DNA of 64,000 nucleotides from a phage: sequence record NC_135732.1. One strand, 5' to 3'. Of this stretch, positions 4,070-44,700 are shown one piece after another. Position numbers and translations under genes: made by a program. The notes under the pieces were generated by a model that saw only the letters and a list, made by a program, of their open reading frames with translations, did no database searches and had not been told where the DNA came from. Within the stretch, counting starts at the first letter, position 1. Each line of letters opens with the position of its first letter.

Positions 4070-4076
4070 ACATTCC

Positions 4077-9400: not shown

Positions 9401-9871
9401 ATGAAACTTGATAAAAATGTTCAACGAAAAGCTTTCTTGGACATGATCGCATATTCGGAAGGCACAGATAATGGTAGGCAACCCACTAAGGATCGGGGAT
9501 ACGATGTCATAGTTGGTGGCAAGCTGTTTAGCGATTACAGCAAGCATCCAGGTGTGTACGTTAAGCTAAATGCTAAACTTACCTCCTCCGCTGCTGGTCG
9601 TTACCAGGTTTTGGAGAAGTTTGCTAAACACTACATGGAACAGTTAGGATTGCCAGATTTTGGCCCCGCCAGTCAGGACAAGATTGCGTTGCAACTGATC
9701 CGTGAGTGCAAGGCTCTCGCCGACATTGACGAAGGGCGTATCCACGAGGCTATCCATAAATGCCGTTCCCGCTGGGCTTCGTTACCTGGTGCTGGATATG
9801 GTCAGCATGAACAGAAGATCGAGAAGTTGATCGAGGTGTTTAAAAAGGCAGGCGGTGTTGTCCTTGATTGA
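9401..9871 (+). CDS. endolysin, lambda R-type lytic transglycosylase
   Basis: Near-colinear with recalled lambda R: RKAFLDMIAYSEGTDNGRQ, GYDVIVGG, AGRYQ, WASLPGAGYGQ. Confidence 0.9.
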   Translation: MKLDKNVQRKAFLDMIAYSEGTDNGRQPTKDRGYDVIVGGKLFSDYSKHPGVYVKLNAKLTSSAAGRYQVLEKFAKHYMEQLGLPDFGPASQDKIALQLIRECKALADIDEGRIHEAIHKCRSRWASLPGAGYGQHEQKIEKLIEVFKKAGGVVLD

Positions 9872-11267: not shown

Positions 11268-12399
11268 AGAATATCCACTTATTGAGTCCATAGATTGTCT
11301 GGCTGATCTTCTTGAACCTGACGCTATAGTTTATTATGACTTCGATCAGGTTGCATATCAAGCTGCAGCAAGTTGTGAAAAAAGGACAATTGAGGTAACA
11401 CACAAAGCCTCCGGACGTAAGAAGATGTTTAAAACACGAACAGAGTTCTGGGGGCGGCAGAAGAACACAGTTGGTGGTTGGTTAAAAGCTGAGAATACCA
11501 ACCGTGAAGCTGCATGTAAAAAGGCTGGCAAGGAGTTTATTCCGTGGACACGAGAAGATTTCGATGTCTTGGATATCCAAACCCCTGATCCTGTAGAGAA
11601 CTGCTTGCACACAATTAAGTGTAAAGCGAATGCAGTCCTTAATTATCTCGGTATTCCGGAAGATCGGTGCGTGGGGGTACTTGGAGGCACAGGTAATTTC
11701 AGACTAGATCTTCCCATGCCGGAAAGATATAAAGCCAACCGTAACAATACTCTTCGACCACTGCTGCTTGGAGATGCAAGACAGTATCTCCAAAAGCAGT
11801 ATAATGCTCAAGTGATCAACGGTATCGAGGCTGACGACTGGTTAGCTATCCAGCAATTTGAAGGTTGGAACCACTACCAAAAAACAGGTAAGTTCAACAA
11901 GTTTATTATCTCTATTGATAAGGACCAAAGAACACTGCCGGGGCTTGTGTTCGATCCCATGCGAAACGATAAGGGAGATTTTGTAAGGGAAACCCCTATG
12001 CTGATCGATAACGGTATGGGGAACATCTTCATGAAGCCTAATGGAGAGGTTGGTGGTTACGGAATGCTGTTCTTCGGATACCAAATGCTGTGTGGTGACT
12101 CTGCCGACAATATCAAGCCGTATCAAGGACTTATCGGTAAGGGTAAGTTCGGGGATGCCTCAGCATTCTACCTACTGTCTCAGTGCAGCACTCCAAAGGA
12201 GATGTGGGTGGCTATTATTGATCAGTACAAGAAGTGGTTCCCGAAAGGTGTTGTTAAGTATACTGACTTCAATGGTGTTGATCGTAGAATTTCCGTAGGT
12301 CAATGGATGAGTATAATTTTTGACTGTTTGTATATGAAGCGAACATTCAATGATCAAACAAAACTTGTTAACGTTCTCAGAAATGTTGGAGCAATTTGA
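11260..12399 (+). CDS. 5'-3' exonuclease / flap endonuclease (T4 RNase H-like)
   Basis: Motifs YKANR and GIEADDW, N-terminal acidic YDFDQ; resembles Pol I 5' nuclease and T4 rnh. Confidence 0.7.
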   Translation: MSREYPLIESIDCLADLLEPDAIVYYDFDQVAYQAAASCEKRTIEVTHKASGRKKMFKTRTEFWGRQKNTVGGWLKAENTNREAACKKAGKEFIPWTREDFDVLDIQTPDPVENCLHTIKCKANAVLNYLGIPEDRCVGVLGGTGNFRLDLPMPERYKANRNNTLRPLLLGDARQYLQKQYNAQVINGIEADDWLAIQQFEGWNHYQKTGKFNKFIISIDKDQRTLPGLVFDPMRNDKGDFVRETPMLIDNGMGNIFMKPNGEVGGYGMLFFGYQMLCGDSADNIKPYQGLIGKGKFGDASAFYLLSQCSTPKEMWVAIIDQYKKWFPKGVVKYTDFNGVDRRISVGQWMSIIFDCLYMKRTFNDQTKLVNVLRNVGAI

Positions 12400-28874: not shown

Positions 28875-29924
28875 ATGAATTTAACACCTCGCAGCACCAT
28901 GGTACACGGCATGAAAGAAAAACAGAACGGTTTCGAACCTATGAGTAATAAAATGTTTGGTATGCCGGGTGGTATTATGGAAACATACAGCTACCCAACA
29001 CCTGTTGTTGACCACGTTCTTTATATCGACGATTTGGAGGACCTGCAGGATCATATGTCTCGTCTGCAGACGATCCGTATGGCTCAGCCGGAAGAAAGCA
29101 TTCGTGTGATCATCAATAGCCCTGGGGGTTGCGTGCACATTGCAATGGCTTATCTACAGGCATTCCGCGAGTCTCAGGCAAGCGTTGTTGCACATGCTGA
29201 AGGGATGTGCTGCTCTGCTGGAACAATCCTATGGCTGGGTTGCAAAGAACGCACTGTGGCTCCGGACACAGAGTTTATGTTCCACTACTATCAAGGCGGC
29301 ACTTATGGCAATGGTGTGAACATGAATACTCAGGTCAGCTACTGGAAAAAACGTTTCGAACGCCTGATCGAAAAATACTACGGTTGGGTGCTGACAGAAG
29401 ATGAGATCGCATCCATCACAGCGGGTGGCGAAGTGTGGTTGGACGGAGAGGAGCTGGCAGCTCGAACTGGAGCTATCATTCTGGATGAAGGCAACATACA
29501 ACGCATCCAGAACGGACAAAAACCTAAAAAGCTTTTGGCAAAAGGTGATGAAGAAGGTGTGCTAGGTGAAGCAGGTCTTCCGGAGATTCACCAGTGCACC
29601 TCTTTAGATGAGCTAGTTCATGCTGTTGAATCTGCAAAAGCGGGTGGTTCGAAAGGTGATGTTCACACTGTGTTCCTGAACCTGCAGATGGAAAGTGGTG
29701 AGACCGTTAAGATTGCCTTAGGCGAGATTACCTCAGAAGATCTGCAGCGATTCTCTGTCGTTGAACTTCAAGACATTCTGTCCCAATTGAAGACAACCCT
29801 GAACGGCGGTGAAGAGGTTAAGGTAAAAGATAAGACTCGCAAGCGTCTGGTGGACAATATTATTAAAACAGCAAAAGAGCTCAATGAAAAAATCCTGGGT
29901 GCAGGAATTGTCGAAGAAGCTTAA
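28875..29924 (+). CDS. ClpP-like serine protease with ~170-aa C-terminal extension
   Basis: ClpP core INSPGG...GMCCSAGT (Ser)...FMFHYYQ (His). Confidence 0.7.
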   Translation: MNLTPRSTMVHGMKEKQNGFEPMSNKMFGMPGGIMETYSYPTPVVDHVLYIDDLEDLQDHMSRLQTIRMAQPEESIRVIINSPGGCVHIAMAYLQAFRESQASVVAHAEGMCCSAGTILWLGCKERTVAPDTEFMFHYYQGGTYGNGVNMNTQVSYWKKRFERLIEKYYGWVLTEDEIASITAGGEVWLDGEELAARTGAIILDEGNIQRIQNGQKPKKLLAKGDEEGVLGEAGLPEIHQCTSLDELVHAVESAKAGGSKGDVHTVFLNLQMESGETVKIALGEITSEDLQRFSVVELQDILSQLKTTLNGGEEVKVKDKTRKRLVDNIIKTAKELNEKILGAGIVEEA

Positions 29925-30826: not shown

Positions 30827-31066
30827 ATGTACAAGTCATTTTCAATCTACTCAAGACAGGCGAAACACTACACAGAGATCCTGATCACTCAGAAAAAATC
30901 TGTGGAAGGTGAGTGGGAATATCACCATAAAATGTTGCGTCCAGACTGGGTTTTTGATAGACTTATTGCTATGATCCCTCTCGGAGAAGTATACCCTCTG
31001 ACAGCCCATCGCGATGCTTGGGATTTAATTGATTACATAGATTCATTTAAGGAGCCTAGATTATGA
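30827..31066 (+). CDS. hypothetical protein
   Basis: Start ATG 30827 after AGAGGGGG RBS. Confidence 0.45.
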   Translation: MYKSFSIYSRQAKHYTEILITQKKSVEGEWEYHHKMLRPDWVFDRLIAMIPLGEVYPLTAHRDAWDLIDYIDSFKEPRL

Positions 31067-31461
31067 AGATTGAGATTACTAAAGAAGGTAAGAAAGTGTC
31101 CGGCAACTATGCAACAGTAATTCGGGATTTAATGTTTGAAGCCACCAAGATCGGTACATCTAAAGTTGGTCAAACTGTTAGTGTGAAAAGTAATATCGCC
31201 ACAGGAGAGAAGGTATTCATTGTGGTCAAAGGGCAGGATCCCGTGGAAGGAACAGTGGGCCGAGGTGGCTACCTGTGCATTTCTGAAGAGCCGCGTATGT
31301 TAGTGGCTGACGCTACTATGGGTGGGAAACGTGTGTGCGAGGCGGATGAGGTAATGATTATCCAACCTGTTGATCCAGATGACCCAGCAACTTGGGTGGT
31401 AGGAAATGAAATCTTCTCTTTAGAAGAGTTATCCTTCCCAGCACCGCGCTCTGTTCAGTAA
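31063..31461 (+). CDS. hypothetical protein (starts MKIEIT)
   Basis: 132-aa ORF. Confidence 0.5.
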   Translation: MKIEITKEGKKVSGNYATVIRDLMFEATKIGTSKVGQTVSVKSNIATGEKVFIVVKGQDPVEGTVGRGGYLCISEEPRMLVADATMGGKRVCEADEVMIIQPVDPDDPATWVVGNEIFSLEELSFPAPRSVQ

Positions 31462-31498
31462 TAATTTATCTTACCAGGGACGGTAGGTAGGAGGTAGC

Positions 31499-31732
31499 AT
31501 GAAAGTTAAATTTCTTACAGATTTAGGGTACCCTTCCTTGGTTGACTGTGTTGGTAAAATTGTGGAAGCAAAACGGCTATCTGCAAACGAGAATGTTGTC
31601 CTGGTTAAAGGGAAGGATTTACTAGCTGCAGGTGCAGAGTCTGGCAGGATCTCTCCTGATTATATGTATTACCTATCTTTAAGTAATCTGCCAGAGCGAG
31701 GCGGTAAAGGCCTTGAAGTTGTGGAGGAGTGA
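31499..31732 (+). CDS. small acidic protein, MKVK-paralog family
   Basis: MKVKFLTDLGYPSLV...KGKDLLAAGA...LEVVEE; paralog of 35155 and 35372 genes. Confidence 0.5.
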   Translation: MKVKFLTDLGYPSLVDCVGKIVEAKRLSANENVVLVKGKDLLAAGAESGRISPDYMYYLSLSNLPERGGKGLEVVEE

Positions 31733-32262
31733 CAGGTATGCTTCTGATTAACTGGGAAGACCTCTATGGGGACAAAGACCCTGTTGCGTTTGTTGATCGT
31801 AGGTGGAGATACACTGAAGAACAACTGGCGGCAAAAAATTTAACTGCAAAACGCAGAAAGATCATCCAGTGCAAGTACAAATACGCACAGTTTGCTGCAA
31901 AAGTGTCTCCACAAATCGAGAGCTTTGTGCTTAAATTGTATGACGAGTACCTCAAATTCAAATTGGATTTTGTGCAGGTGTACCGTGCACAGGTACGACC
32001 AGATACCAACATATGTAGATGGGAGGTTGTTTGTGAAGGTAAAGATTTGCCGCTCAGCTTGACAATTGAGTGGCGTTATGGGTATCATGAGTGTGGTCTG
32101 TATGATATTTGGGATGTCATTGTAGATCCTGCTAAGCATCTGAACACAGAGGAGCTGGAATATATCAATAAGGTTATTCTCGATATGTTTTTCAGCTACA
32201 CACATGAAAACTCTGAGAAAGAACGGGATAATTTTCTTGACACCCTCAGCGACCATTTGTAG
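31729..32262 (+). CDS. hypothetical protein
   Basis: 177-aa ORF. Confidence 0.5.
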   Translation: MTGMLLINWEDLYGDKDPVAFVDRRWRYTEEQLAAKNLTAKRRKIIQCKYKYAQFAAKVSPQIESFVLKLYDEYLKFKLDFVQVYRAQVRPDTNICRWEVVCEGKDLPLSLTIEWRYGYHECGLYDIWDVIVDPAKHLNTEELEYINKVILDMFFSYTHENSEKERDNFLDTLSDHL

Positions 32263-32292
32263 TATACAATTTAACCTACAAAGGGAGGACCA

Positions 32293-32520
32293 ATGAGTAT
32301 AAATGTTGTGCTAATAGGTTACCTGGTAATGTCCGTTATAACAGCGGTATTCTTGACAGGTGTATGCATCGTGTCCAGACGAAGGGTGAAGTTTGATGAT
32401 TTTATCACCATCATCACTGCTGCACCTTTTTGGCCTGTTGTTATCTTCATCGTAATAATGTGCCTAGTTGATTACTACAAGAATATCAGGAAGGAGAGTA
32501 GGGATGGAGACCGCACCTAA
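32293..32520 (+). CDS. small membrane protein (two predicted TM helices)
   Basis: Hydrophobic stretches VLIGYLVMSVITAVFLTGVCIV and ITAAPFWPVVIFIVIMCLV. Confidence 0.45.
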   Translation: MSINVVLIGYLVMSVITAVFLTGVCIVSRRRVKFDDFITIITAAPFWPVVIFIVIMCLVDYYKNIRKESRDGDRT

Positions 32521-32739
32521 AACTATCTATACTGTTCTTAAAGAGATTGCGTTCTACGCAGATCTTAGCCAGGCACCTTTATGGGAAAAGAGCATGTATT
32601 TAAAATGGTGCGTTAATTTAGGGAGACCTTCCAGTGTTTCAAGCCATGTTTATTGAGATGCTATCTGGGATATTGTTACTGGTAGCCATCTTAGGTGGTG
32701 CAGTTCTGATGTATAACTATCTTGAAAAAGGAGACAGCA

Positions 32740-32925
32740 ATGGTAAAAAATAAATCTTTAGAGCAGGCTGAAAACCTTCTCCACGAGCTGGTAAAGGAGT
32801 GGAAAGTTGAATACTCAGATTTTAATGCACGAGAGGGTGAAGATTATTGGCCTACGGAGCGCTCAGAGGGCGAATGGTATCAAGATTTTATAGAGTGGTT
32901 ATATCAGACGTGCGATGAGGGGTGA
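32740..32925 (+). CDS. hypothetical protein
   Basis: Start ATG 32740 after AAAGGAGA RBS. Confidence 0.4.
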   Translation: MVKNKSLEQAENLLHELVKEWKVEYSDFNAREGEDYWPTERSEGEWYQDFIEWLYQTCDEG

Positions 32926-33392
32926 CGATGTTTGTTAAATATGTAAAAACGTGCCTCAACAGTCTTGGCAGAGAGCATTGGTACACCTTGCTTGAAAAAG
33001 GGGAAATTTTAACAAAATCTGGAAAGATAACTTTGATACCTCTTGATAGTAAAGGTAAAGACCCGTCACGACTTGTTATAGATGATTACGTTACAGGTGT
33101 GACGTTCGAGGTCTCTGTGGAGAGGTTAATACGCAGAGCTGGCGGCCCTTATGACCGAAGAGAGTATGTTTTCGATTCCGTTACAGAGATGGGGGAGCAT
33201 CCGTCTTTAATGTTCAGGATGGTAATCAGAGATATGAGGTCATCTATAGATAGGATCGTAAAGGACATTAAGGAACCTTTTAGAGTAAAAGTTAAGAAGT
33301 TTTTCGATTCTAAGATTAACATACTCGCCGTTGCACTAGGTGTAGTTCAACTTCTGTTAATTTTGCACTATTTTGAACTACTATTTAAGTAG
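32922..33392 (+). CDS. hypothetical protein, C-terminal TM helix
   Basis: 156-aa ORF. Confidence 0.5.
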   Translation: MTMFVKYVKTCLNSLGREHWYTLLEKGEILTKSGKITLIPLDSKGKDPSRLVIDDYVTGVTFEVSVERLIRRAGGPYDRREYVFDSVTEMGEHPSLMFRMVIRDMRSSIDRIVKDIKEPFRVKVKKFFDSKINILAVALGVVQLLLILHYFELLFK

Positions 33393-33454
33393 TAGTTGAG
33401 ATATGGCACAAAGGATGTGCCATAGTGAAATAAACTAAGAAAGAGGTAGAGAGA

Positions 33455-33802
33455 ATGCCAAAGATTAAAACGTTATTACTGTGGGTAGCTGTTTTAGCTT
33501 TTATAGGGTACTGGACTTGGGAAACTGAATTAAAAGATATCGGATATACCAGTCTTGAGAGCAAGGCGTGCATTGGCATAACCGATGCGTTCAGGCAAAA
33601 TGCTCTGGATCACGAATGTGTTGATGCAGATATAGATGAGAAACTGTCTAAGGACAAAGATTTTTACCATGGGCATGCTTTACTTGATAGTGGTGACACT
33701 GTAGAGTTCTGGTCGTGGTTTCGTGAAGATGGAACAATAAAAACAGCAGTAAAGATCTCTAACAAAGAGTTAATGCTGTTGCAGCAAAAGGAGGCTCAAT
33801 GA
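33455..33802 (+). CDS. hypothetical protein with N-terminal signal/TM segment
   Basis: 115-aa ORF. Confidence 0.5.
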   Translation: MPKIKTLLLWVAVLAFIGYWTWETELKDIGYTSLESKACIGITDAFRQNALDHECVDADIDEKLSKDKDFYHGHALLDSGDTVEFWSWFREDGTIKTAVKISNKELMLLQQKEAQ

Positions 33803-34086
33803 TCTGGATATCCTATGCTGATGGCACCATGCTGTATACTGCAGGTACCAGATATGAAGTTCAGGAGAACGATAAAAAATTTATCGTAAAAACATTTGAC
33901 AAGGACGACAACCTTTTGCTAGAATTGACTTACAAAGTTGGAGAGGTATCCAATATCCAGTTGGATTGTGGTCATAAAGATAATCCACTCAAAAAACCTG
34001 GAGTAGGTAAGGCTTCAGAAGAACGTCTGTCTCGTATTGCAGAAAGCGTTTCTCCCCAAAAATCTAAGAAGAGGACTAGAAAATGA
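33799..34086 (+). CDS. hypothetical protein
   Basis: 95-aa ORF. Confidence 0.5.
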   Translation: MIWISYADGTMLYTAGTRYEVQENDKKFIVKTFDKDDNLLLELTYKVGEVSNIQLDCGHKDNPLKKPGVGKASEERLSRIAESVSPQKSKKRTRK

Positions 34087-34277
34087 AAAACTTACGTTTT
34101 AACACTTATTACTACAACACATTGAATGATTTGTATTATATTGTTCGAAGTAAAAGTCCTGAAACAGTCCTATTCTGCCGCGAACCTTTCAAAGGGGAGG
34201 AAGTAGAGTCTGAGATGAATGTTAGCCAGATCACCTCTTTGTTGCTCTCAGGCGCAATGGAAGAAGCAATATTCTAA
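34083..34277 (+). CDS. hypothetical protein
   Basis: 64-aa ORF. Confidence 0.4.
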   Translation: MKNLRFNTYYYNTLNDLYYIVRSKSPETVLFCREPFKGEEVESEMNVSQITSLLLSGAMEEAIF

Positions 34278-34296
34278 ACCGGGCGGGAGGGTTTTT

Positions 34297-34482
34297 ATGA
34301 AGCACTATTGTCTGTCTGGTAGAATGGGTGCAGATTGTGATTGGGTTTTCTTAAAACTTGTCAGTATTCGAGAGTTCATCCCAGAGGAAGAGCAAGAAAG
34401 TGAGCTGATGTCATGGATCAACCATTACGGTAACACTTTTCGGCATGTTAAGGTAGAAGAGTTGCCAGGCGAGGCTGATTGA
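34297..34482 (+). CDS. hypothetical protein
   Basis: Track ORF trimmed to ATG 34297 after GGGAGGG. Confidence 0.4.
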   Translation: MKHYCLSGRMGADCDWVFLKLVSIREFIPEEEQESELMSWINHYGNTFRHVKVEELPGEAD

Positions 34483-34577
34483 CTATGATTGCATCAATAT
34501 TAACGTTTATGGGTGGCGTGTCATTCGGATTCATTGTTTGCCTATTTATAGTGATTATGTCTATGCGGGGCTGAATT

Positions 34578-34874
34578 ATGAAACTTTTTGAGTGGTTTAA
34601 AAAGTTTAAATATAAAGCTGTAGCCATCGTGCCGTGGTCAATTCAGTGGGTTGATGAAGGTGGTCTACCGATACCTGGTGACAAAGATACTGGGTACTGG
34701 ATTATGATGGAGAACGGGTTTGGAAAGCGAAAGTATACGTGCACAAACTCTACTCGATCTGCACTTAATAGAGTGCCTGGTTATAAACTTATGGTTGTGT
34801 GGAAAATGTCAGGCGTGCCTCCAGCCAATGCTCAATTTCTTACTGACAATCCGACCACGGTAGAGGGAGATTGA
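34578..34874 (+). CDS. hypothetical protein
   Basis: 98-aa ORF. Confidence 0.5.
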   Translation: MKLFEWFKKFKYKAVAIVPWSIQWVDEGGLPIPGDKDTGYWIMMENGFGKRKYTCTNSTRSALNRVPGYKLMVVWKMSGVPPANAQFLTDNPTTVEGD

Positions 34875-35158
34875 TAATGAAAAAGATTAACAGTAGTGAA
34901 GTAGAGTTTAAACTTGTCGGAAAAGGCACTTACTGGGAAGTTCGTCAAAAGGTATATTTGTTCGGTCTTATTCCCTACTGGTCTAAATTCTACTGGGGAG
35001 CTAACGAGTGGGGAAGATACGCCACCAAATCAATGGCACTTGTTGGTATAGCAGAGTACATTGCAGCCCGAGATAGGGTTGGAACCACTTATTACTACAC
35101 TGCTGACGATATTCGTAACAGTGTTTACGTCCCACAACCGCCTGAGGGAGACCGTTGA
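34871..35158 (+). CDS. hypothetical protein
   Basis: 95-aa ORF. Confidence 0.5.
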   Translation: MIMKKINSSEVEFKLVGKGTYWEVRQKVYLFGLIPYWSKFYWGANEWGRYATKSMALVGIAEYIAARDRVGTTYYYTADDIRNSVYVPQPPEGDR

Positions 35159-35382
35159 TGAAAGTTAAAGTTTTAGATTCAAGCTTCTATATTGGTCAGG
35201 AGCCCTTAGTGGGGAAAGTGTTTACCGCTATCCCTAACGAAGATTATCCTGACCTTTTAAAAATAAAAGGTGCAGATCTTATTGCCGCTGGTGCATCTCA
35301 GGACTGCTTTGACAGCCAGTGGACCTACAACTTTGCCCTTGGTGAGGATGTAGAGATAGTGGAGGACGAGAATGAAGGTTAA
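35155..35382 (+). CDS. small acidic protein, MKVK-paralog family
   Basis: MKVKVLDSSFYIGQEPLVGKV...KGADLIAAGA...DVEIVEDENEG. Confidence 0.5.
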   Translation: MMKVKVLDSSFYIGQEPLVGKVFTAIPNEDYPDLLKIKGADLIAAGASQDCFDSQWTYNFALGEDVEIVEDENEG

Positions 35383-35626
35383 AATTCTTGATTCTAACGT
35401 CTACTTGGGACAATCCTTCCTGAAGGGAAAGGTTGTACCTGCGGTGTACTTTGAATGGTTGCCTGACAACGATCCTGTGCGTCAGAAGCATTCCACTGTA
35501 TCACACGGTGTGGTATTTATTCGCGGGTTAGATCTGATCAAAGCGGGTGTCCCCAAGTATTACTTTGGGGAAGAACATTACTATGCCTTCGGTGTAGGAA
35601 CAGACGTAGAGATTGTAGAGCGGTAG
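35372..35626 (+). CDS. small protein, MKVK-paralog family
   Basis: MKVKILDSNVYLGQSFLKGKV...RGLDLIKAGV...DVEIVER. Confidence 0.5.
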   Translation: MKVKILDSNVYLGQSFLKGKVVPAVYFEWLPDNDPVRQKHSTVSHGVVFIRGLDLIKAGVPKYYFGEEHYYAFGVGTDVEIVER

Positions 35627-35627
35627 T

Positions 35628-36026
35628 ATGAAGAACAAGCTTTTCAAAGTAACAATGAAAATTCGCGGAGCTTGGAGCGTAAAGCAAGGGCGTATTCCGG
35701 AATTTGAGAAAGACTTCTACGTAGTCTCCACCTCGGAGGAGGCTGCATGCTGGCAGGCTGGCTATGCCTATGCAAGAACCTGGTACGAAGGATACCAGAC
35801 TGGGGGCTATGACGGAGAAATTATCAGCAAGGGTGTAGAAGAAATTAATGTGTTGACAAGTGAAAAAGTTTTTGTTATAGTGCATCCAGATTCCAGAGTG
35901 AAGCATTACTGGAATGCCAGAACAAAAACTTGGACACCGTTTGCAGATTCTGCTACGCCACTTTTAAACCAGAAAGCTCTTGACTCTGCCCCAAGTTATG
36001 GGGTTGTTGAAGAAAAGCTAAACTGA
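35628..36026 (+). CDS. hypothetical protein
   Basis: 132-aa ORF. Confidence 0.5.
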   Translation: MKNKLFKVTMKIRGAWSVKQGRIPEFEKDFYVVSTSEEAACWQAGYAYARTWYEGYQTGGYDGEIISKGVEEINVLTSEKVFVIVHPDSRVKHYWNARTKTWTPFADSATPLLNQKALDSAPSYGVVEEKLN

Positions 36027-36043
36027 AACAGTGAGGTGTCACC

Positions 36044-36334
36044 ATGATGGATTTAATTCTAAATATTGATAACGCAGAAGAGTTTAAAGACGATGGTGTA
36101 ACAAGCATGGACAAACCCTGCTCTGCTAAGGTTGACTCAAAATGGACCTACAAGTTTGACGGAGAGATCTTCGCAAATGATGAGAAGGTTGTAGATGCTG
36201 CAGCCATTTTAAACGCTCTAGGGTACGACCCTGTGAATTCTTTGATCAAGGATCCTGTTGAGTTTGCAGAGTATGTTCGAAAAATGGCAGATCTTGCTGT
36301 GGATATTTTAAAAACTATCGACAACAAGCTGTAA
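36044..36334 (+). CDS. hypothetical acidic protein
   Basis: 96-aa ORF. Confidence 0.5.
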   Translation: MMDLILNIDNAEEFKDDGVTSMDKPCSAKVDSKWTYKFDGEIFANDEKVVDAAAILNALGYDPVNSLIKDPVEFAEYVRKMADLAVDILKTIDNKL

Positions 36335-36340
36335 AAACTG

Positions 36341-36369
36341 TTGACACAACGCTTCAGATTTAGTATCAT
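36341..36369 (+). promoter_or_regulatory. sigma70-like promoter upstream of the HPF homolog
   Basis: TTGACA, 17-bp spacer, TATCAT. Confidence 0.6.
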
Positions 36370-36418
36370 TGTTTTCAAAGAGAGATAGTTATTCCCTCTT
36401 CCTTAAAAGGAACACGTT

Positions 36419-36739
36419 ATGCAAATTGAAATCACTGGCAACAATGTAGAAATCACAGAAGGTATGGTATCTTTTATTTCCCGCAAAATGTCCAAGCTGG
36501 AGCGTTTACATCCCTCTGTTAACTATGCACGTGTGAGTGTAAAAGTTGAAAATGATCACCAGGAAGTTATGGCGTTCATTTTTGACAATTCTGGAAAAGA
36601 AGTTATTGCCAAGGCTAAAGGCAGTGATGCTTACGAGGCAACTGACCGTATGGTAGATGTTGCAGCACGTCAGCTGGCTAAATGCGGTGGAAAGAAAGGT
36701 AAGGGGAAAGGCAAAGTAAAGATTGACTTTGGAGAATGA
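36419..36739 (+). CDS. hpf: ribosome hibernation promoting factor / RaiA-family protein
   Basis: N-terminus MQIEITGNNVEITEGM almost identical to recalled E. coli HPF (MQLNITGNNVEITEAL); further KLE, VKVE and AARQLAK blocks in register. Confidence 0.8.
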   Translation: MQIEITGNNVEITEGMVSFISRKMSKLERLHPSVNYARVSVKVENDHQEVMAFIFDNSGKEVIAKAKGSDAYEATDRMVDVAARQLAKCGGKKGKGKGKVKIDFGE

Positions 36740-36876
36740 GGTGCTACAATGGGTGTGATTAAGAAATTAGTCCCAAATGTAGAGATTGCATGCTTTGAAA
36801 TTATGTTTGCAATCGCAGTTGTAGTTAATGTGTTAGGTTACGGCTATTAATATCAAATAATTGAGGAGACCTCTAA

Positions 36877-37146
36877 ATGAAAATTAAATTATTCAAAACT
36901 GAGCTGGCAGACAAAAATTGTGGTCTGGTTGAAGGCATGATTGTTGAAGCACAACCAGTGGACTATATGAAGGTGGTTCGTGATGCCCTGGGTGAAGGTT
37001 TTGATCTGATGGAGCCAGCTCTGCGAGAAGATGTTATCGAGATGGCTAAAAAGCACACACCTGAGGGTTTGGTGGTGTTTGTTGCACCTGGTAATGGAGA
37101 AGAGTTGATTGTAACTCCTGATGTGTATGAGATTGTAGAGGAATAA
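36877..37146 (+). CDS. small acidic protein, paralog family (ends YEIVEE)
   Basis: 89-aa ORF starting MKIKLF. Confidence 0.5.
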   Translation: MKIKLFKTELADKNCGLVEGMIVEAQPVDYMKVVRDALGEGFDLMEPALREDVIEMAKKHTPEGLVVFVAPGNGEELIVTPDVYEIVEE

Positions 37147-37237
37147 TCCTGCTTGGATTAGCATACTTCCTCGCTAAGGAAGATTTGTAATTATTTGTGG
37201 GAAAGGAATCCCAATATCTTACCAGAGGTGATATTAT

Positions 37238-37501
37238 ATGATTGTTTATTTTAAAACTTCAGGTGGATACCCTGATTCTCAAAGCTTGATCGGAAAAACG
37301 TGCACAGCATACTCACCTCTTGATGAGGAGGTAAGTGATATTCTACGAAATATGTATCGGATTGACCCCCAAGAAGCTTTTGATCAAAACCTTGTATTTG
37401 TCAAGGGCTCAGACATGAAGTCTTTGGGAGCATTCCCTGAAGCAGATGATGATGCCGTTTATTCGTTCATGACTCCTTTTGAAGCTATGGTTGTTGGGTG
37501 A
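37238..37501 (+). CDS. small acidic protein, paralog family
   Basis: 87-aa ORF. Confidence 0.45.
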   Translation: MIVYFKTSGGYPDSQSLIGKTCTAYSPLDEEVSDILRNMYRIDPQEAFDQNLVFVKGSDMKSLGAFPEADDDAVYSFMTPFEAMVVG

Positions 37502-37505
37502 TAAT

Positions 37506-37838
37506 ATGAAAGTACGCTTTATTGGTGAAACAATTCCTGTGCATCTCCGGTCTCCTGAGGATTCTGCAGATCTTGCATCTCAAAAGGCGAGAGGTTATGA
37601 TAAGAAAGTAACCTCAACCGATGTAGTGCTTGAGGCTACTAGTCTACCTGACCCTGCTGCATTCTTTAATCATTATGGGTACTATTTCAGCAATCTGATG
37701 AATATCGGTGAGCTTGTGTTTATTAGTGGTGGAGAAATTGTTAGCAAGCTTGGCGGAGATCCGGATGTCTTTCATGAAACCTGTCCTTTTGCATTTGTGG
37801 TGGGTTCAGATGTGGAAGTTATTGAGGAGGTGCGGTAA
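37506..37838 (+). CDS. small acidic protein, paralog family (ends DVEVIEEVR)
   Basis: Start ATG 37506 (MKVRFIG). Confidence 0.5.
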   Translation: MKVRFIGETIPVHLRSPEDSADLASQKARGYDKKVTSTDVVLEATSLPDPAAFFNHYGYYFSNLMNIGELVFISGGEIVSKLGGDPDVFHETCPFAFVVGSDVEVIEEVR

Positions 37839-38233
37839 TGGTAAGCCTATACCGTGTTGAGTATAGCTCAGATACTGTATACAACGTAAGAAGCAAAGAT
37901 CGCAGCGACAGAGTGCAAGAAATGTACGTTCTTGCCGACAGTCCGTTATCTGCAGCGTTCAAGGCAGGGGCTCTTGCATCTCGTTGGAAATTTGAAGGTG
38001 GATCTTTCTATGAAGAAACCCTTGAAGATTCTGTTGTTATTTCTTCTGTAGAGGTTTCAGATGACTACGAAGGGAAAAAGTTCGTAATGCGGCACCCACA
38101 CAGCAATATTGCGTACTACTGGGATGTTCTGAACAACGAGTGGACCCCAGATCTTCAGAAGGCTACTGTGCTAACACCGTTTTTGGCAGATAAGTTCCCA
38201 CCAGAAGGTAATTTATCTGCACTGTTTCAGTAA
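37838..38233 (+). CDS. hypothetical protein
   Basis: 131-aa ORF. Confidence 0.5.
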   Translation: MVSLYRVEYSSDTVYNVRSKDRSDRVQEMYVLADSPLSAAFKAGALASRWKFEGGSFYEETLEDSVVISSVEVSDDYEGKKFVMRHPHSNIAYYWDVLNNEWTPDLQKATVLTPFLADKFPPEGNLSALFQ

Positions 38234-38309
38234 TTTTCTTGCACACAGGTGTTGACAACGCCAACCCTGTGTGAAATAATACCTTCATCTTAACAAGACA
38301 GGAGACCGA

Positions 38310-38570
38310 TTGATGAAGATTAAATTGAAAAACCTTGAAACGGCAGAGATTCAGGACGGTGTTGATTTCCGTTCTAAAGATGGTGACATCTTAGAGGTAA
38401 ATATTCCAACCTACGAGCTGATCAAAGGTTTTGGCAACGTCCCCGAGGAAGGTATCGCAGACGTTCTTCTAATGTTAATCGTTAGTGGGACAGTGTTCTT
38501 GGGTGAAGGTGAGAACGCTATTGCAATCCCAAGCCATTTTTATGAAGTAGTTGACGAAGAGGTGCTGTAA
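38310..38570 (+). CDS. small acidic protein, paralog family (ends YEVVDEEVL)
   Basis: Promoter-like TTGACA-17-AATAAT at 38252-38280 upstream. Confidence 0.5.
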   Translation: MMKIKLKNLETAEIQDGVDFRSKDGDILEVNIPTYELIKGFGNVPEEGIADVLLMLIVSGTVFLGEGENAIAIPSHFYEVVDEEVL

Positions 38571-38921
38571 ATGAAAGTAGAAATTACTGGTTTTGATGTG
38601 AATGTGGTTCCGGAAGATATTTTAGCTAAACTCCCGGAAGGTTTTGGTAACGGTGTTGTGGTGGATGCTGTTCCTCCTACCAAAGACATTCTGCTGCAGT
38701 ATGGTGTAGCAGAGGAAGATGTCGATAAAGTTCTTACAATGATGGCAATCGATCGTGTTGTCGTTGTTAAAGGTCTCGATAATTTTGAGAGTGATCCCCT
38801 GATTATTCGTGGAGATGACTATAAAATCATCGATAATGAAGGCCAAGAGTTCTATGAGCCTTGTGCAGAAGATATTCTTAGCTTATTACTGGAAGCAGGT
38901 ACCGAAGAGGAGGACGAATAA
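38571..38921 (+). CDS. small acidic protein (starts MKVEITGFDV)
   Basis: 116-aa ORF. Confidence 0.5.
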   Translation: MKVEITGFDVNVVPEDILAKLPEGFGNGVVVDAVPPTKDILLQYGVAEEDVDKVLTMMAIDRVVVVKGLDNFESDPLIIRGDDYKIIDNEGQEFYEPCAEDILSLLLEAGTEEEDE

Positions 38922-39250
38922 TGAAGATTGACCCGTTACTGAAGGCTCGTGCAGAAAAAGCGTACACCATTAAGCTGACCAACCTGGTTCCTACTTGTCA
39001 TCCAGATGTAGGTTGGCCTGAAGGTCTGGTAGAGGGGACTGTAACAGCTGCATACCTCCCTAACATCAAATACCTTATGGAAATCTTGGAGCTGGATGAG
39101 GAAACGGCAGAAGAGTTCCAGTTGGACATGAAACAAAGTGGGACTCTGGTTATTCACGGGTGGTATAATACTAAAGACGCAGAAGACCCTCTTGTAACTT
39201 CTAATCTGGCATATGAAATCTTAGGACCTTTGAACCTGGGGGAAGACTAA
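38921..39250 (+). CDS. small acidic protein
   Basis: 109-aa ORF. Confidence 0.5.
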   Translation: MKIDPLLKARAEKAYTIKLTNLVPTCHPDVGWPEGLVEGTVTAAYLPNIKYLMEILELDEETAEEFQLDMKQSGTLVIHGWYNTKDAEDPLVTSNLAYEILGPLNLGED

Positions 39251-39537
39251 TGAAAGATCTGGTTAAGATTAAGATTAAAGATACCAACGGCGAACTCAGC
39301 CATTTTGGAATTAATGATGGTGACGAGCTGATCGCACACCTGCCTACCAAGGAAGTTGTAAGCAAAGCAGTTGCCGGAGAAGAAGATGCAATGCAGGCTG
39401 CAGGTGTGGATGAAAACTATGTAGCCATGTGCATGTGCCGAGACCAGGTTGTTCTGTATAAAGCGTATCGACCAAACGGAGCCACGGAGTGGCTTGTATT
39501 CCGACCCGAAGGATATGAAATCTTAGAGGCACTATGA
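39250..39537 (+). CDS. small acidic protein
   Basis: 95-aa ORF. Confidence 0.5.
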   Translation: MKDLVKIKIKDTNGELSHFGINDGDELIAHLPTKEVVSKAVAGEEDAMQAAGVDENYVAMCMCRDQVVLYKAYRPNGATEWLVFRPEGYEILEAL

Positions 39538-39626
39538 TAAATCTTGCCAAGGTTGCAACGGTACTGTTAATTATTTGCTGGTCAGTAACCTTAACACTGT
39601 GTCTTGTATTTCAGTAAGGTGCTTAT

Positions 39627-39890
39627 ATGAACATCCTGATGTGGGTTGTAGCAGTGGCGTTTGTTGCATGTTTTTGCTGCTGGGTTGCGGTGAGGATTTC
39701 TGTAGCTACCCTTCGGAAGTTGGGGTTCTCAGAGTGGGATATTAATATCCTTTCTTTTCGCAATGAAACAATCTCAGCCGCCCTGCTCTGTAAGAAATTC
39801 AAGTGGGAACCTTGCGAGGTCATGAACTATCTAAGAACGGGAGATATCCCTGAAAGATTTAAAAAAGTTCTTGACGACAAGGATAAATGA
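39627..39890 (+). CDS. small membrane protein
   Basis: N-terminal TM helix WVVAVAFVACFCCWVAV. Confidence 0.45.
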   Translation: MNILMWVVAVAFVACFCCWVAVRISVATLRKLGFSEWDINILSFRNETISAALLCKKFKWEPCEVMNYLRTGDIPERFKKVLDDKDK

Positions 39891-40045
39891 TAGTATAGTG
39901 ACTAACAAGAGGTGAGGAATGACTGATTTTACTGAAGCTTTAATGATGGCCTTGTCTGTTTTAGCGCTATCGGTGTGTTTTGGGGCGTTATTCACATCTC
40001 TGGTTAAAGTTTTACATACAGTATTATTACCCAAGGAGCGCAGTA

Positions 40046-40297
40046 ATGACGAAGATTGACTTGAATGCTGGCGATCATGTTGTTGTCAAATGCATTGGAG
40101 ATTATCTTGGATTCACAATCGGCAATACTTACGAGGCGGTAGTGGCGAAGGTTTACTATGATAAAGTCCTCAGTCTTGTATTTGACTGCGATGATGATGG
40201 GGATGACCGATACGTCTGTGAGGTGCTGGCACGAGACGATAGTGAAGACCAGAAATTCCTGGTTATTGAACTGAACGGTATTTTTGTAGAACGTTAA
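40046..40297 (+). CDS. hypothetical acidic protein
   Basis: Start ATG 40046 after AAGGAG RBS. Confidence 0.45.
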   Translation: MTKIDLNAGDHVVVKCIGDYLGFTIGNTYEAVVAKVYYDKVLSLVFDCDDDGDDRYVCEVLARDDSEDQKFLVIELNGIFVER

Positions 40298-40325
40298 TTT
40301 AAAACAACATAAGGAGACTCTTACT

Positions 40326-40631
40326 ATGGCTAAATCTAAAGTTGAACTGTTCACCTCTCTTCCTTCTGACACTGCAGAGCGTGATCGCCTTCGCAAAACA
40401 ATCGAAGAACTGGTAGAACTCCAACTTCAGATTAAAGATCTGAAAGATGCCATTAAGGATATCATTCTCGTTGAGAAGCAGGATCACCTGTATTCTCCTA
40501 AATTCATCAAATCTCTGGTGGCTACCGAGTTCGATATTCGCTATGAGGCTGAAAAACGTCGCGCTAAAATCGAAGAAGAGGTTGAGCACATGTCTGAGGC
40601 AGACATTCTGTTCAAACGCTCTGTAGAATAA
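40326..40631 (+). CDS. hypothetical coiled-coil protein
   Basis: 101-aa ORF followed by a strong terminator. Confidence 0.5.
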   Translation: MAKSKVELFTSLPSDTAERDRLRKTIEELVELQLQIKDLKDAIKDIILVEKQDHLYSPKFIKSLVATEFDIRYEAEKRRAKIEEEVEHMSEADILFKRSVE

Positions 40632-40635
40632 TGAC

Positions 40636-40663
40636 AAAGAGGGGGGCTTGGGCCCCTCTTTTT
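40636..40663 (+). terminator. rho-independent terminator
   Basis: AGAGGGGGGC-ttg-GGCCCCTCT followed by TTTTTT. Confidence 0.7.
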
Positions 40664-40686
40664 TCTATCTATGAAGGAGATTTGAG

Positions 40687-41013
40687 ATGGGTATACCGAT
40701 TACTGTAAAAGAGCTAAATGAACGTGATGCAGGTGGTCTATGGCCTGCACGAAAAATCCGCTGCGTCTATATGAAAGAGAATCTTGAACATCTTGATCAA
40801 CAGATAAAGGTCGGCGATATTTTCGAGGTCTTCTATTCCAATCGTCGCAACTGGGAAACCATTCAACCTTCCGGTTTTGTTCTTGCTAAGCTCGACACTG
40901 GAGAAGTGATTATCCCAGGGTTGGATATTGTCTTCGAAATTATCCAGGAGTGGGATCCGGATAAGATTAGATACGAAGAGTTATTCGGTAAAGGTATTAT
41001 CAAACCTGTGTGA
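40687..41013 (+). CDS. hypothetical protein
   Basis: 108-aa ORF with GGAGA RBS. Confidence 0.5.
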   Translation: MGIPITVKELNERDAGGLWPARKIRCVYMKENLEHLDQQIKVGDIFEVFYSNRRNWETIQPSGFVLAKLDTGEVIIPGLDIVFEIIQEWDPDKIRYEELFGKGIIKPV

Positions 41014-41321
41014 GGTGGATTATGTCTACAAAGGCGGCTAAATACTCTTACATGCCATCAACCTCTGCAGAGGTAGACTTTAGTTTCGATGTGTTTCCAC
41101 TGTTTGAGGTGGTTCTGGCATACCCAACAATACTATCTACTCCTGAATCACTTGTGCCTGTTAAATTGCAGAACGCTATGCATTCTATGCACTACAACAA
41201 TAAATGTAGGCACAGATGGTGTCAGGACGAGGAAAAAGATTTAGATAGTTTGAGAGATTTTGACAGTCACCTTTTGACACCTTTCAGCTACTCCAACCTT
41301 GATAAGCCCTCATGGGTATAG
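41010..41321 (+). CDS. hypothetical protein
   Basis: 103-aa ORF. Confidence 0.45.
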   Translation: MRWIMSTKAAKYSYMPSTSAEVDFSFDVFPLFEVVLAYPTILSTPESLVPVKLQNAMHSMHYNNKCRHRWCQDEEKDLDSLRDFDSHLLTPFSYSNLDKPSWV

Positions 41322-41345
41322 CAAAATATCAAATTTAAGACACCT

Positions 41346-41372
41346 AGGACGCTCTGTGGCGTCCTTTTCTTT
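41346..41372 (+). terminator. rho-independent terminator
   Basis: AGGACGC-tctgt-GGCGTCCT followed by TTTCTTT. Confidence 0.6.
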
Positions 41373-41534
41373 ATCTGGTGCACGATTGCATACCTTGGAC
41401 AGATAATCTCATTACAGAGCGTTTAAGAGCTTCCTACAAACAAATCTCTCTTTCGAGCGTAGCGAGAACGCACGTCCGTTTTGACCCAAATCACCATACG
41501 CTCGGATTTTAACCAAACCCTCGCGGCGTTTCTG

Positions 41535-41563
41535 TTGACACATTACCGCTCTCGTGATAGTAT
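41535..41563 (+). promoter_or_regulatory. sigma70-like promoter
   Basis: TTGACA, 17-bp spacer, TAGTAT. Confidence 0.55.
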
Positions 41564-41583
41564 CCACACATCGTTTGGAGAAT

Positions 41584-41685
41584 ATGGAATACACAATGAG
41601 AACATTGTCTGAAGTTTTAGTGGTGATCCTGATGATCATTACATCCATAGCGGCTGTTGCCGGAATACTCACAGGTGGAACATGA
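41584..41685 (+). CDS. small hydrophobic protein, 33 aa
   Basis: Not in ORF track. GGAGAA RBS; ATGA overlap with the next ORF. Confidence 0.35.
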   Translation: MEYTMRTLSEVLVVILMIITSIAAVAGILTGGT

Positions 41686-41897
41686 TCAACACACATGCAT
41701 CTGAAGAGACATCCGAAGGAGTGACGACCATATGTAACCTGGCTGAGCCAGTGAAAGAGGAAAACTTCGATTCTGAAGATTCTCCATCTTCGCTCCAGGT
41801 AGACCCTGAGGCTGATGACCTGACGTGGGAGGACATCGTAGACATCTGGTTCTCTATTATGCCTGAGCACGAAGAGTTCAGAGGTGGTAGACTATGA
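41682..41897 (+). CDS. hypothetical acidic protein
   Basis: 71-aa ORF. Confidence 0.4.
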   Translation: MINTHASEETSEGVTTICNLAEPVKEENFDSEDSPSSLQVDPEADDLTWEDIVDIWFSIMPEHEEFRGGRL

Positions 41898-42017
41898 AGC
41901 ACCGAGCCCACACAGGTTCCTCATGCTAAAGCATGACCTGAAGAGGCAAACGTGCATAATTCCTGTGCATTGAAACGTATAAACCCTGTTCACACTCTCA
42001 TTCACAGAGGAGATTTC

Positions 42018-42233
42018 ATGAAGATAGAAATATTTGGTGGGGCTGACAACACTCGTGGCCTGATTTACCTTGAATTCGATGAATCATACCTGCCAGAGGT
42101 GTTAAATATAGACTCTGTTGCTGAGGCTTTGGGAGTAAACCCTAAAGAACTCCACTCTTGTGCTGAGATCGATGGTTGGGAAGAGACCATGAACATTGAT
42201 TTCAGTGAAGTAGAGGATGAACCGCTGGACTGA
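42018..42233 (+). CDS. small acidic protein (starts MKIEIFGG)
   Basis: Start ATG 42018 after GAGGAGA RBS. Confidence 0.45.
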   Translation: MKIEIFGGADNTRGLIYLEFDESYLPEVLNIDSVAEALGVNPKELHSCAEIDGWEETMNIDFSEVEDEPLD

Positions 42234-43699
42234 CACACAATTAGCTGCCCGGCTAAAGTGCTGGAAGCGCACCTATAACACATATTTCAACTAAATTTCC
42301 CACCACCACAATCACTTACCTACCACACGTGACTGTTTGCTTGTTTAGTGAGCAGTCATGCCTTGACATTCTTGCCTATCCTGATAAAATTAAGTTCTTC
42401 TCTTTTCTTTTACCGAGTAATTCGGGTTTTCTGTTCTCTTCGGTTTGAAGGGGTATGGAGATACACCTGAGTGAACAGGGTGAACAACCGAACCATTAGC
42501 TATGGCATTAGCATGGCGAAGCGGACGGGTGACGAAAGAGGGGCCGGAGGACACCAGTCACTGCCATATGATATATGGGTGATAACCTGAAGAGTCTGAA
42601 TAAGTGTTTAAGTACCAGTCAGAGGAAAAGGTGAATGGTAGCCGAAGGGGGAGGGGGGGTTTCTTGTATCTTTAATTTGTATATTATGTATACACTTGTA
42701 AACCAATTTCATATGAATCTGTTTACCACACAAAGTGGATTGAGACAAATATTACCTATTAAACTTGAATTATTTATAGAAAATACCACAACACACCTTA
42801 AGTCTTTGATTTTACACATAAATCTTACAGATATTCAACCTCCATATTTAACATACTTGTAACATATCCTATACCACACCTGCCTGATCAATTCCCCCAA
42901 CTACATCCTCTATATTTTCCCTGTCTGTACTACCCCATCCCCGCCGGGAGTCCCGTCATATCTGGCTTTCCAGCAAATATCACACCCACAAATATCATTG
43001 CCTGAAGAGGGTTTCATCCTCTAATACCTGCCTTACCTGAAGAGCGCTTCATACACCACGTAAATTTTTTAATTGACCTGCAATTTTCCCGTCATGACCC
43101 CCTGCCCCGCCGGAGAGGTTGGCTTTTCCCACACAGACCTGAAGAGTCAGCCAGAAATATCTGAACAGGCCCAATTCTACCACGATTTTGACCTGACCTA
43201 CAGGAGTGCTGCCAGGCGGACGAAATGGGAATACTTCTCATTCTTATAATAATTCTCAAATATCGAGGCAGTGAAGCAAATTAATAGGTGAGGCCGTTCA
43301 CATAGTGGCACAACATTTGCAATCTATTTTGTGTGGGGGAATGAGAATACCTATCATTGTGAGAACTGTTATCATTACGGGCAATTTAACATAATACCCA
43401 TTATGCGCACCACTGGCGATACATACAGGGATTGATAACATGAGTTACTGTTTACGCATATAACAATTATATTTATTACTATTTGTGTGGGATATAGTTA
43501 GCAGCCGATAGATTAGATATTGACCTGCGGACTTCTGACCGTCTAGACGTCTAAACGCCCACACAGCAAGAGTTATACATACATCGCTGAATGTAAACAG
43601 GGCCGCAAAAATGCTACCATACCAGTTTGTAAATTTTTCATGCAGCACTTGACAAAGAGGAGAAAAACTTGTCTGACATAATGTGACCTAACTGACACA

Positions 43700-43800
43700 A
43701 CATGACACTTTTACACACCTATTAGTTTACACACTGGATTGTTTACATTCCTGATTGTTCACATGCTAACCATTTACATGATTGACTGTTTACACACCGA
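43700..43800. repeat. Cluster of short direct repeats (iteron-like): TGTTTACA(C) and CATGACA
   Basis: Six or more copies of GTTTACA/TTTACAC within ~100 bp; further copies at ~44216 and ~44259. Confidence 0.7.
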
Positions 43801-43807
43801 TAATCAG

Positions 43808-44060
43808 CCATGCCATTCGTTTGCATGACAATAATTATACATGACAATAATCGCACTGATTATAATTAGCATGACATAATATAAAAGCAGGGCAACTATT
43901 AGCAGATCTATAGTTGCCTTGCTTGTTATGTCATGATTAACTAAATACAAGGCAACTATGATCTGATTAATAGTTTGCAGACAAACTATCACGGGGGTGA
44001 TGGTTACTGCTTTTATATTATGTCGCGACTCCGTCGCGCCATGCCATTCGTTTGCATAGT
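43808..44060. repeat. Composite element: 20-bp direct repeats flanking a 16-bp perfect inverted repeat and nested palindromes
   Basis: GCCATGCCATTCGTTTGCAT at 43808 and 44040; CATAATATAAAAGCAG (43875-43890) with its exact reverse complement at 44007-44022; palindrome GGCAACTAT...ATAGTTGCC at ~43891-43919. Confidence 0.75.
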
Positions 44061-44659
44061 TGCCTTATTGTTACAGATAAAATAATTGTATTGTTAATTA
44101 TTTCTTATCTTTCTATTAGTCATCTAATGATTTCAGTTAATATAGTAACGTACAGTAAACATTAGACGACTAAAGATTTCTCTGCTTATGGTAACCTAAC
44201 GTGACAATTCCAGACTGTTTACGAAAAATGTTGACACCTGGGCCGATTTATGTTATGCAGTTTACACGAATAATTATTTTATGCAGGTATTGACTATTCC
44301 GTTATTCTACGGTTGGAATAAATGCTTAGCAGGCTATAGAATGGCGAGCGTACGTAAATTCTGAGATCTGGCGGCTATAGTTATACTCGATTTTTCACGT
44401 AGAAAACGCTTTTGTAGTTATGTAAGTGTATGACTTATAAGAATTTTTAGTTGTTGACAAGCTATTGAAGATATGCATCAGGTTAAATTTTGTGCAAATG
44501 CTGCATTACGTGCAATTTTGGAAGGAAAAACGTGTAAAAATGGCCCTGCTACCACACAATGAAAAATTATGCAATAGTTATTTTATATGTATGTTTGTAC
44601 AGTGGGGTTAATTGCTGGCTTGTTGATTATTCCATTTGCCAGGCGGGGCCATTTGTGGT

Positions 44660-44700
44660 AGGAAAAGAGGAGACAAAAAGAAAGGGGCTTTAAGCCCCTG
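44660..44700 (-). terminator. terminator for the minus-strand block
   Basis: AGGGGCT-ttaa-AGCCCCT with a T-rich run on the minus strand. Confidence 0.55.

Follow-up and report, generated by a model that had tools for sequence, protein, structure and literature searches.

Paralogous arrays of small early accessory genes are familiar in large lytic phages; T7 Ocr, T4 Arn, PBS2 Ugi and many anti-CRISPRs are likewise small, mostly acidic products of early-region genes, and SH3-like barrel folds typically serve as binding modules. The subject of this report is a set of ten small plus-strand genes (B to K) between positions 31499 and 39537 of a 64,000-nucleotide stretch of phage DNA (sequence record NC_135732.1; the whole stretch is called the window below). 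The ten genes fall into two paralogous families of five (family 1 and family 2), an expansion of a type often met in phages. Neither by sequence nor by fold was the array matched to Ocr, Arn, Ugi or the anti-CRISPRs, its charge is not conserved among the paralogs, and no anti-restriction phenotype has been seen in Vequintavirus, the genus concerned. In its predicted fold, a barrel of about 70 residues, family 1 is like the SH3-like small β-barrels (SH3, KOW of Spt5/NusG, PsaE, retroviral integrase C-terminal domain). A family 1 member also occurs among the accessory genes that lambdoid and mEpimmI temperate phages carry in their nin and Q-to-lysis regions, with one copy there against five, plus five of family 2, in Vequintavirus. 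The nearest catalogued clusters are PHROG 5009 and the PHROGs linked to it, listed as of unknown function; B, C and D match end to end at about 1e-27 to 1e-37, and PHROGs scatter G, F and all of family 2 over separate genus-only clusters, so that the five-plus-five paralogy and the fold are unrecorded there. The fold is confidently predicted. No paper discussing the genes was found in the literature on Vequintavirus anti-defence, escaper mutants, rV5 paralogs and mEp021.

The 11.3-kb region that holds the array is 98.6% identical to Escherichia phage magaca, a Vequintavirus (rV5-like), and it shares 90% identity or more with over 110 further rV5-like Vequintavirus phages. An earlier note on this DNA had described one family of ten to twelve members. 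All twelve open reading frames (ORFs) that it reported are present on the plus strand, with better starts at ATG 35158 instead of TTG 35155 (C) and ATG 38313 instead of TTG 38310 (H); the start of G is ATG 37506. The members of family 1 are the following (HMM, hidden Markov model; aa, amino acids; nt, nucleotides).

31499–31732, plus strand: B, 77 aa, MKVKF...LEVVEE; PHROG 5009 8e-36; hhalign against C 1e-21; extended family 1 HMM 4e-24.
35158–35382, plus strand: C, 74 aa, modelled; PHROG 5009 4e-37.
35372–35626, plus strand: D, 84 aa, net charge 0, start overlapping the end of C by 11 nt; PHROG 5009 4e-27; hhalign C–D 5.5e-22, D–G 3.4e-9.
37238–37501, plus strand: F, 87 aa, starting MIVYF, with an insertion of about 22 aa between strands 2 and 3; extended family 1 HMM 2.7e-20; hhalign 5.5e-18.
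37506–37838, plus strand: G, 110 aa, with insertions after strand 1 and between strands 2 and 3; extended family 1 HMM 1.3e-16; hhalign 1.2e-16.

In a phmmer search of the twelve ORFs against all 387 ORFs of the window that are 45 aa or longer, links appeared among B, C, D and G only, and the first HMM iteration brought in F at 2e-4. The kinship of B, C and D, which the earlier note had called clear paralogs, is plain (phmmer 1.5e-12 and 4e-5; hhalign 1e-21 to 1e-22). Orthogroup profiles were then built from collected homologs, and one sequence from a divergent relative (L005, a Logan contig) was added per orthogroup. An empirical null came from 176 comparisons of these profiles with 22 nearby genes of the block that belong to neither family (best P = 5e-3). 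Family 1 profiles were linked at hhalign P 1e-22 to 1e-5. In the test against PHROG 5009, full-length matches were given by B, C and D and a weak one by F (1e-4); G gave no match there, its support being the extended family 1 HMM (1e-16). G and F have genus-only PHROGs of their own (13661 and 13920, respectively). Distant homologs of family 1 bridge PHROG 5009 to PHROGs 13367, 8603, 7345, 15322 and 20482, all of function unknown. In the array proteins conservation falls on glycines, hydrophobics and two or three aromatics, with Gly, Tyr, Ala and hydrophobic residues invariant; no catalytic-type residue is among them.

Homology within the second group is visible only at the profile level. The initial orthogroup profiles of E, H, I, J and K gave weak but collinear links, and the statistics became sharper because the divergent ortholog was added to each orthogroup. 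In a stepwise HMM search the missing members were the top non-self matches among the 387 ORFs. The hhalign results were: H–I, P 1.6e-7 over 82 columns; I–J, 5e-6 over 70 columns; HIJ profile against K, 3.7e-5 over 62 columns; HIJK profile against E, 4.1e-5 over 64 columns; all are collinear and lie beyond the best null value. Each member has one genus-only PHROG (11868, 12359, 12155, 12457 and 12794).

36877–37146, plus strand: E, probable family 2 member, 89 aa, ...VYEIVEE; stepwise HMM top non-self match 1.6e-3; HIJK profile 4.1e-5.
38313–38570, plus strand: H, family 2, 85 aa, modelled; hhalign H–I 1.6e-7.
38571–38921, plus strand: I, family 2, 116 aa, net charge -21, acidic C-terminal tail; H–I 1.6e-7, I–J 5e-6.
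38921–39250, plus strand: J, family 2, 109 aa, 16-aa N-terminal extension; I–J 5e-6, J–K 6.7e-4.
39250–39537, plus strand: K, probable family 2 member, 95 aa; HIJ profile 3.7e-5.

Since the profile P values lie beyond the empirical null, two five-member families are regarded as established at the level of sequence profiles, with E and K as the least certain members. The single family of the earlier note is not supported by these profiles, and the likeness within each of the two is full-length and statistically strong, not limited to the start and stop peptides. The two looser relatives that had been named, A and L, found no support. A was rejected at hhalign P of at least 0.015 against every group; for L the HIJKE profile gave only P = 1.8e-3 at 15% probability.

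31063–31461, plus strand: A, outside both families, sharing only MKIEI; PHROG 5748.
42018–42233, plus strand: L, with a weak hint towards family 2; PHROG 12108.

The AlphaFold2 model of C (predicted local distance difference test, pLDDT, 91) is a 70-aa SH3-like five-stranded barrel; it aligns with solved SH3-like domains over 47–58 residues at 2–3.8 Å, which makes the predicted fold SH3/KOW-like. The second match of this model in the structure database BFVD was the ortholog of F in phage CM1 (template modelling score 0.80). The AlphaFold2 model of H (34-sequence alignment, pLDDT 84.6) has the order strand 1, strand 2, two helices, strands 3, 4 and 5; its best matches in BFVD were a protein of Vibrio phage Vc1 (7e-5) and, from the rV5-like phage ECP32, a protein as long as K, 95 aa (3.5e-3). 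In the predicted structures family 1 is built on an SH3-like five-stranded barrel of some 70 residues, its members differing by loop insertions, and in family 2 the strands follow one another as in family 1, two helices being inserted behind strand 2. Fold searches returned generic barrels or uncharacterised phage proteins, and no known DNA mimic was among the structure or sequence matches. For the members of family 1, Pfam gave no family at an E-value of 1 or below, KOW and SH3 included; no significant match came from scans of all ten members against Pfam, NCBIfam and PADLOC, or from profile searches of the PDB with the alignments of the two families. The earlier statement that the family could not be named was borne out: only PHROGs of function unknown were matched.

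The two families may have a common origin. Such a single superfamily, in which family 2 would be the family 1 barrel with a helical insert gained between strands 2 and 3, is a possibility that we consider less likely than not. The order of elements is identical in both models, with strand 1 at residues 2–5 and a last strand of the Y/V-E-I-V-E type; F, which would have gone part of this way, bears its insertion at the very place of the helical insert; and the inter-family hhalign values (P 2.4e-4 to 1.7e-3) lie just past the best null value. The link is borderline, judged by these profiles: the alignment is restricted to the N-terminal 30 or so columns and never passes strands 1 and 2, the HMM of each family misses the members of the other in the window and in the divergent relative, and the GxDLIxAGA helix of family 1 is missing from family 2. 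The BFVD lists for the C and H models have no good match in common; the single joint target, A0A516M2G1, has an E-value of 1.0 for the H model.

Two further genes accompany the array.

35628–36026, plus strand: X1, 132 aa, paralog of X2, directly 3' of D; BLASTP against X2 8e-10; PHROG 7379.
37838–38233, plus strand: X2, 131 aa, paralog of X1, directly 3' of G; BLASTP against X1 8e-10; PHROG 7379.

From their sequences and order, D with X1 and G with X2 look like a duplicated two-gene module. The array probably grew by local duplication, as C–D, F–G and H–I–J–K are adjacent and the two modules would be duplicates of each other.

A word-indexed search of 5.8 billion proteins gave 36 clusters of family 1 and 53 of family 2, nearly all from rV5-like contigs; HMMER, run exhaustively over 1.84 billion representative proteins, gave only 41 clusters of family 1. 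About 120 genomes carry array genes. Vequintavirus has five copies of family 1 per genome (three detectable by tblastn), compared with one or two in the few other carriers, and family 2 was seen only in Vequintavirus, where a consensus query matches four places per genome; the lineage-specific expansion claimed in the earlier note is supported. The other cultured phages with family 1 are temperate mEpimmI phages, a Proteus podovirus and Vibrio phage CHOED. A true member (mEp021_40, HMM 4e-26) lies between Q and the holin gene, and in IMG/VR a separate consensus query found four loci on prophage-like contigs, near recT/exo and an integrase gene or between dnaB and ninB; the temperate phages thus hold family 1 in nin-like or early accessory regions. 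Three metagenomic proteins (P0100, P0102 and P0124) contain two or three tandem copies of the family 1 domain, and because of these the domain is taken as an autonomous module. A chimeric protein of 98 aa on an ENA contig (P0086) consists of 55 N-terminal residues of Pfam DUF7399 (3e-11) and a C-terminal half identical to a J-type C-terminus.

In Vibrio phage CHOED (L003) the HNH endonuclease CHOED_040 (3557–4216) has an entire family 1 domain, in frame, as its 72 C-terminal residues and is followed by a free family 1 gene, CHOED_039 (4206–4409), ending FEVIEE. The fusion probably arose when a homing endonuclease gene was inserted and its reading frame ran on into a family 1 gene; it was set aside as functional evidence because it resembles such an in-frame read-through.

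Each of the ten genes has a one-to-one ortholog in the divergent relative, where gene order is kept and protein identity is 35–79%. Against it, dN (non-synonymous substitutions per site) of the members is 0.14–0.63, several times that of the neighbouring methyltransferase (0.09); as synonymous sites are mostly saturated at this distance, the ratio of dN to synonymous substitutions (dN/dS) was taken from closer genomes. The pooled dN/dS of the members is 0.18 against phage Murica and 0.15 against Bas59, which is purifying selection. With dN high, gene order kept and pooled dN/dS low, the genes are fast-evolving but retained. D and H differ between this phage and Murica far more than their neighbours do; D is an allelic hot spot, with 29.6 synonymous and 28.4 non-synonymous differences compared with 0–9 elsewhere. 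Allele exchange of D and H within the genus is indicated by these comparisons. In the divergent relative the position of X1 is taken by an unrelated 106-aa gene, and an extra gene (its positions 11389–11685; Pfam PF27050, Phage_P22_Y8K6), with no counterpart in the window, lies between X2 and H.

A natural deletion exists in the viable phage EduardKellenberger (Bas59, L009, MZ501061).

32135–35940: interval of 3.8 kb deleted in Bas59 (BLASTN and Bas59 annotation).

Lost with this interval are C, D, most of X1 and about 13 other small genes. The junction lies at about 9622–9636 of the Bas59 sequence, with a 15-bp overlap, and creates a fused ORF annotated 'putative glycosidase'. Bas59 plates normally in spite of the loss of C and D, and in the phenotyping of the BASEL collection it behaves like Bas57 and Bas58, EcoPI aside, which varies among all three. 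As Bas59 lacks both genes and is unchanged, C and D are dispensable on Escherichia coli K-12 and not needed against the eleven immunity systems of that set. The efficiency of plating (EOP) on EcoKI is 0.06–0.8 in Bas57, Bas58 and Bas59, with no change in the absence of C and D. Exceptional susceptibility to restriction-modification systems is ascribed to the Vequintaviruses (PMC8594841); type II and III systems restrict them strongly, and effective protection is described as lacking.

Upstream of the array and on the same strand are genes for DNA ligase, exonuclease, RNase H, ThyX, aerobic and anaerobic ribonucleotide reductases and PhoH. In the rV5 genome paper, genes 82–163 are a single transcription unit with sigma-70-type promoters, and paralog families are not mentioned for this block (PMC3606486). 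By gene neighbourhood and that description (PMC3606486) the arrays lie inside the DNA-metabolism/early transcription unit, in keeping with the early-region location proposed in the earlier note; sigma-70-like promoters were located in the gaps upstream of E and H. In phage Murica all genes from the ClpP-like protease and methyltransferase genes to the end of the plus-strand block are annotated as hypothetical, except a ribosome hibernation factor.

36341–36369: promoter-like site with a perfect -35 TTGACA, in the gap upstream of the hibernation factor gene.
36419–36739: ribosome hibernation factor gene, mid-array; its ortholog in the divergent relative matches Pfam Ribosomal_S30AE.
36723–36750, plus strand: sigma-70-like promoter in the gap upstream of E; TTGACT, 16-nt spacer, TACAAT, with TG; consensus scan only.
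38252–38280, plus strand: sigma-70-like promoter in the gap upstream of the H–I–J–K run; TTGACA, 17-nt spacer, AATAAT, with TG; consensus scan only.
40636–40661, both strands scored: strongest terminator-like hairpin of the scan and the first downstream of the arrays; an annotated terminator in phage Murica.

The explanation that we favour is that the ten proteins are non-enzymatic, protein-binding accessory modules made early in infection, each with a different partner; we put the probability of this at about 0.5. It is suggested by the lack of catalytic-type residues and of matches to known domains, by the occurrence of the domain alone or in tandem, by the acidity of most members and by paralogs that have diverged while their orthologs were kept. 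An accessory role is favoured by the normal plating of Bas59 and by the location of family 1 in temperate phages, and early synthesis by the promoters and the place in the transcription unit. Every one of the diverged paralogs would have its own protein partner, from the host (or the phage), and the outcome could be an adjustment of host physiology or an evasion of host factors missing from laboratory E. coli K-12. Early expression, protein binding and any part in host takeover or counter-defence are what we infer. Several points weigh against this interpretation. The promoter matches are to the consensus only, 47 being found compared with 34 ± 6 in shuffled sequence. The array genes are nearly universal in the genus and not patchy, unlike many anti-defence genes; and the loss of C and D changed neither the response to the eleven immunity systems nor the host range, and so gives no positive support for counter-defence.

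Ten of about 35 unknown small early genes are reduced to two paralog families, which leaves fewer unknowns and offers a reasoned choice of targets when rV5-like phages are screened by deletion or for interactions. In biocontrol and therapy directed at E. coli O157 these phages are in wide use. The BASEL collection includes some of them, and its Vequintaviruses, the natural C–D deletion included, form a ready experimental system.

A stronger version, in which ten binders on one SH3-like scaffold, that of family 2 being derived from it, would each neutralise another sensor or defence effector of natural E. coli, absent from K-12, is speculative and rather doubtful. If true, the phage would encode a counter-defence repertoire made up of paralogs, with a fold that has so far had no link to anti-defence.

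It is improbable that the proteins are regulators of gene expression, i.e., KOW/SH3-like modules docking on RNA polymerase, ribosomes or the phage ClpP-like protease. The hibernation factor gene inside the array and the ClpP-like and PhoH-like genes upstream would fit this, but neighbourhood carries little information in a block of some 35 small genes, acidic proteins bind RNA poorly, and KOW was among the Pfam families not matched.

Little credence is likewise given to the explanation that the shared terminal peptides are by-products of translation signals in packed genes and not a mark of homology, MK coming from an A-rich second codon and EE from the GGAGG of the next gene. The earlier note had used an MK(V/I)K/E start and an acidic (D/E)VE(I/V)VEE end as marks of the family. 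MK begins 40 of the 387 ORFs and is for this reason no evidence alone. The start nevertheless stands in so far as MK(V/I)K forms strand 1 of both predicted folds; it does not hold for F (MIVYF), and in J and K the MKIK-like strand sits after N-terminal extensions. At the other end, the codons for the terminal EE or ED of B, C, G, H, I and J spell GGAGG-like ribosome-binding sites 5–12 nt before the next start (gene ends of this Shine-Dalgarno type include 31717–31732, 35361–35371, 37823–37837, 38556–38570 and 38906–38920). Non-family neighbours end ...EGD, ...EGDR, ...KEAQ and ...CDEG, likewise from the ribosome-binding site of the next gene. C-termini, those of non-family genes too, are thus biased towards E and G because their last codons form the next Shine-Dalgarno site, and this overlap excludes C-terminal EE as purely protein-level conservation. 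Translation signals fully cover A and L. As a complete explanation they are refuted and stand only for those two genes and for the last two or three residues of the motif: homology within each family is full-length; (D/E)VE(I/V)VE is strand 5 of the predicted family 1 fold and recurs in distant homologs of unrelated phages; E and K end ...YEIVEE and ...YEILEAL despite a downstream spacer of 89–91 nt.

The sequence (I/V)VEE near the C-terminus, without ribosome-binding-site overlap, was also observed in the ClpP-like protease (28875–29924, ...GIVEEA) and in X1 (...GVVEEKLN); this may be chance, about 0.2 cases being expected among 26 genes.

Acidity, held in the earlier note to be a hallmark with DNA-mimic-like charge, was rejected as a distinguishing feature. 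Most members are acidic (I -21; C, E, H and J -10 to -11), but the whole gene block is so (median isoelectric point, pI, 4.9), D has a net charge of 0 and B of -1, and homologs of family 1 range from -11 to +3 (median -6). That the proteins imitate DNA by their acidic surfaces, in the manner of Ocr, ArdA, Arn and Ugi, and so inhibit restriction enzymes or further DNA-binding proteins of defence systems or the host, is quite unlikely: the type I systems EcoKI and EcoCFT_I do restrict Vequintaviruses only weakly (EOP 0.06–1), but the charge is not conserved, no known mimic was among the matches by structure or sequence, the EcoKI profile of Bas59 is that of phages with C and D, and the genus is described as exceptionally susceptible to restriction-modification and is strongly restricted by types II and III.

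Downstream of L, a gene-poor stretch of about 2.4 kb (42300–44700) lies where the plus-strand block meets a minus-strand block and the sign of the guanine–cytosine (GC) skew flips; neither tandem repeats nor an Rfam match were found in it, and it may correspond to a box labelled 'non-coding', without ORFs, in the genome-map legend of the rV5 paper. At the left edge of the window two transfer RNA (tRNA) genes were located on the minus strand (15–111 and 509–580), part of a tRNA cluster annotated in Murica. Over the array region, eighteen GenBank entries that bear the name 'Campylobacter phage' match E. coli rV5-like phages at about 98% identity; they are probably mislabelled or from phages propagated on contaminating hosts.

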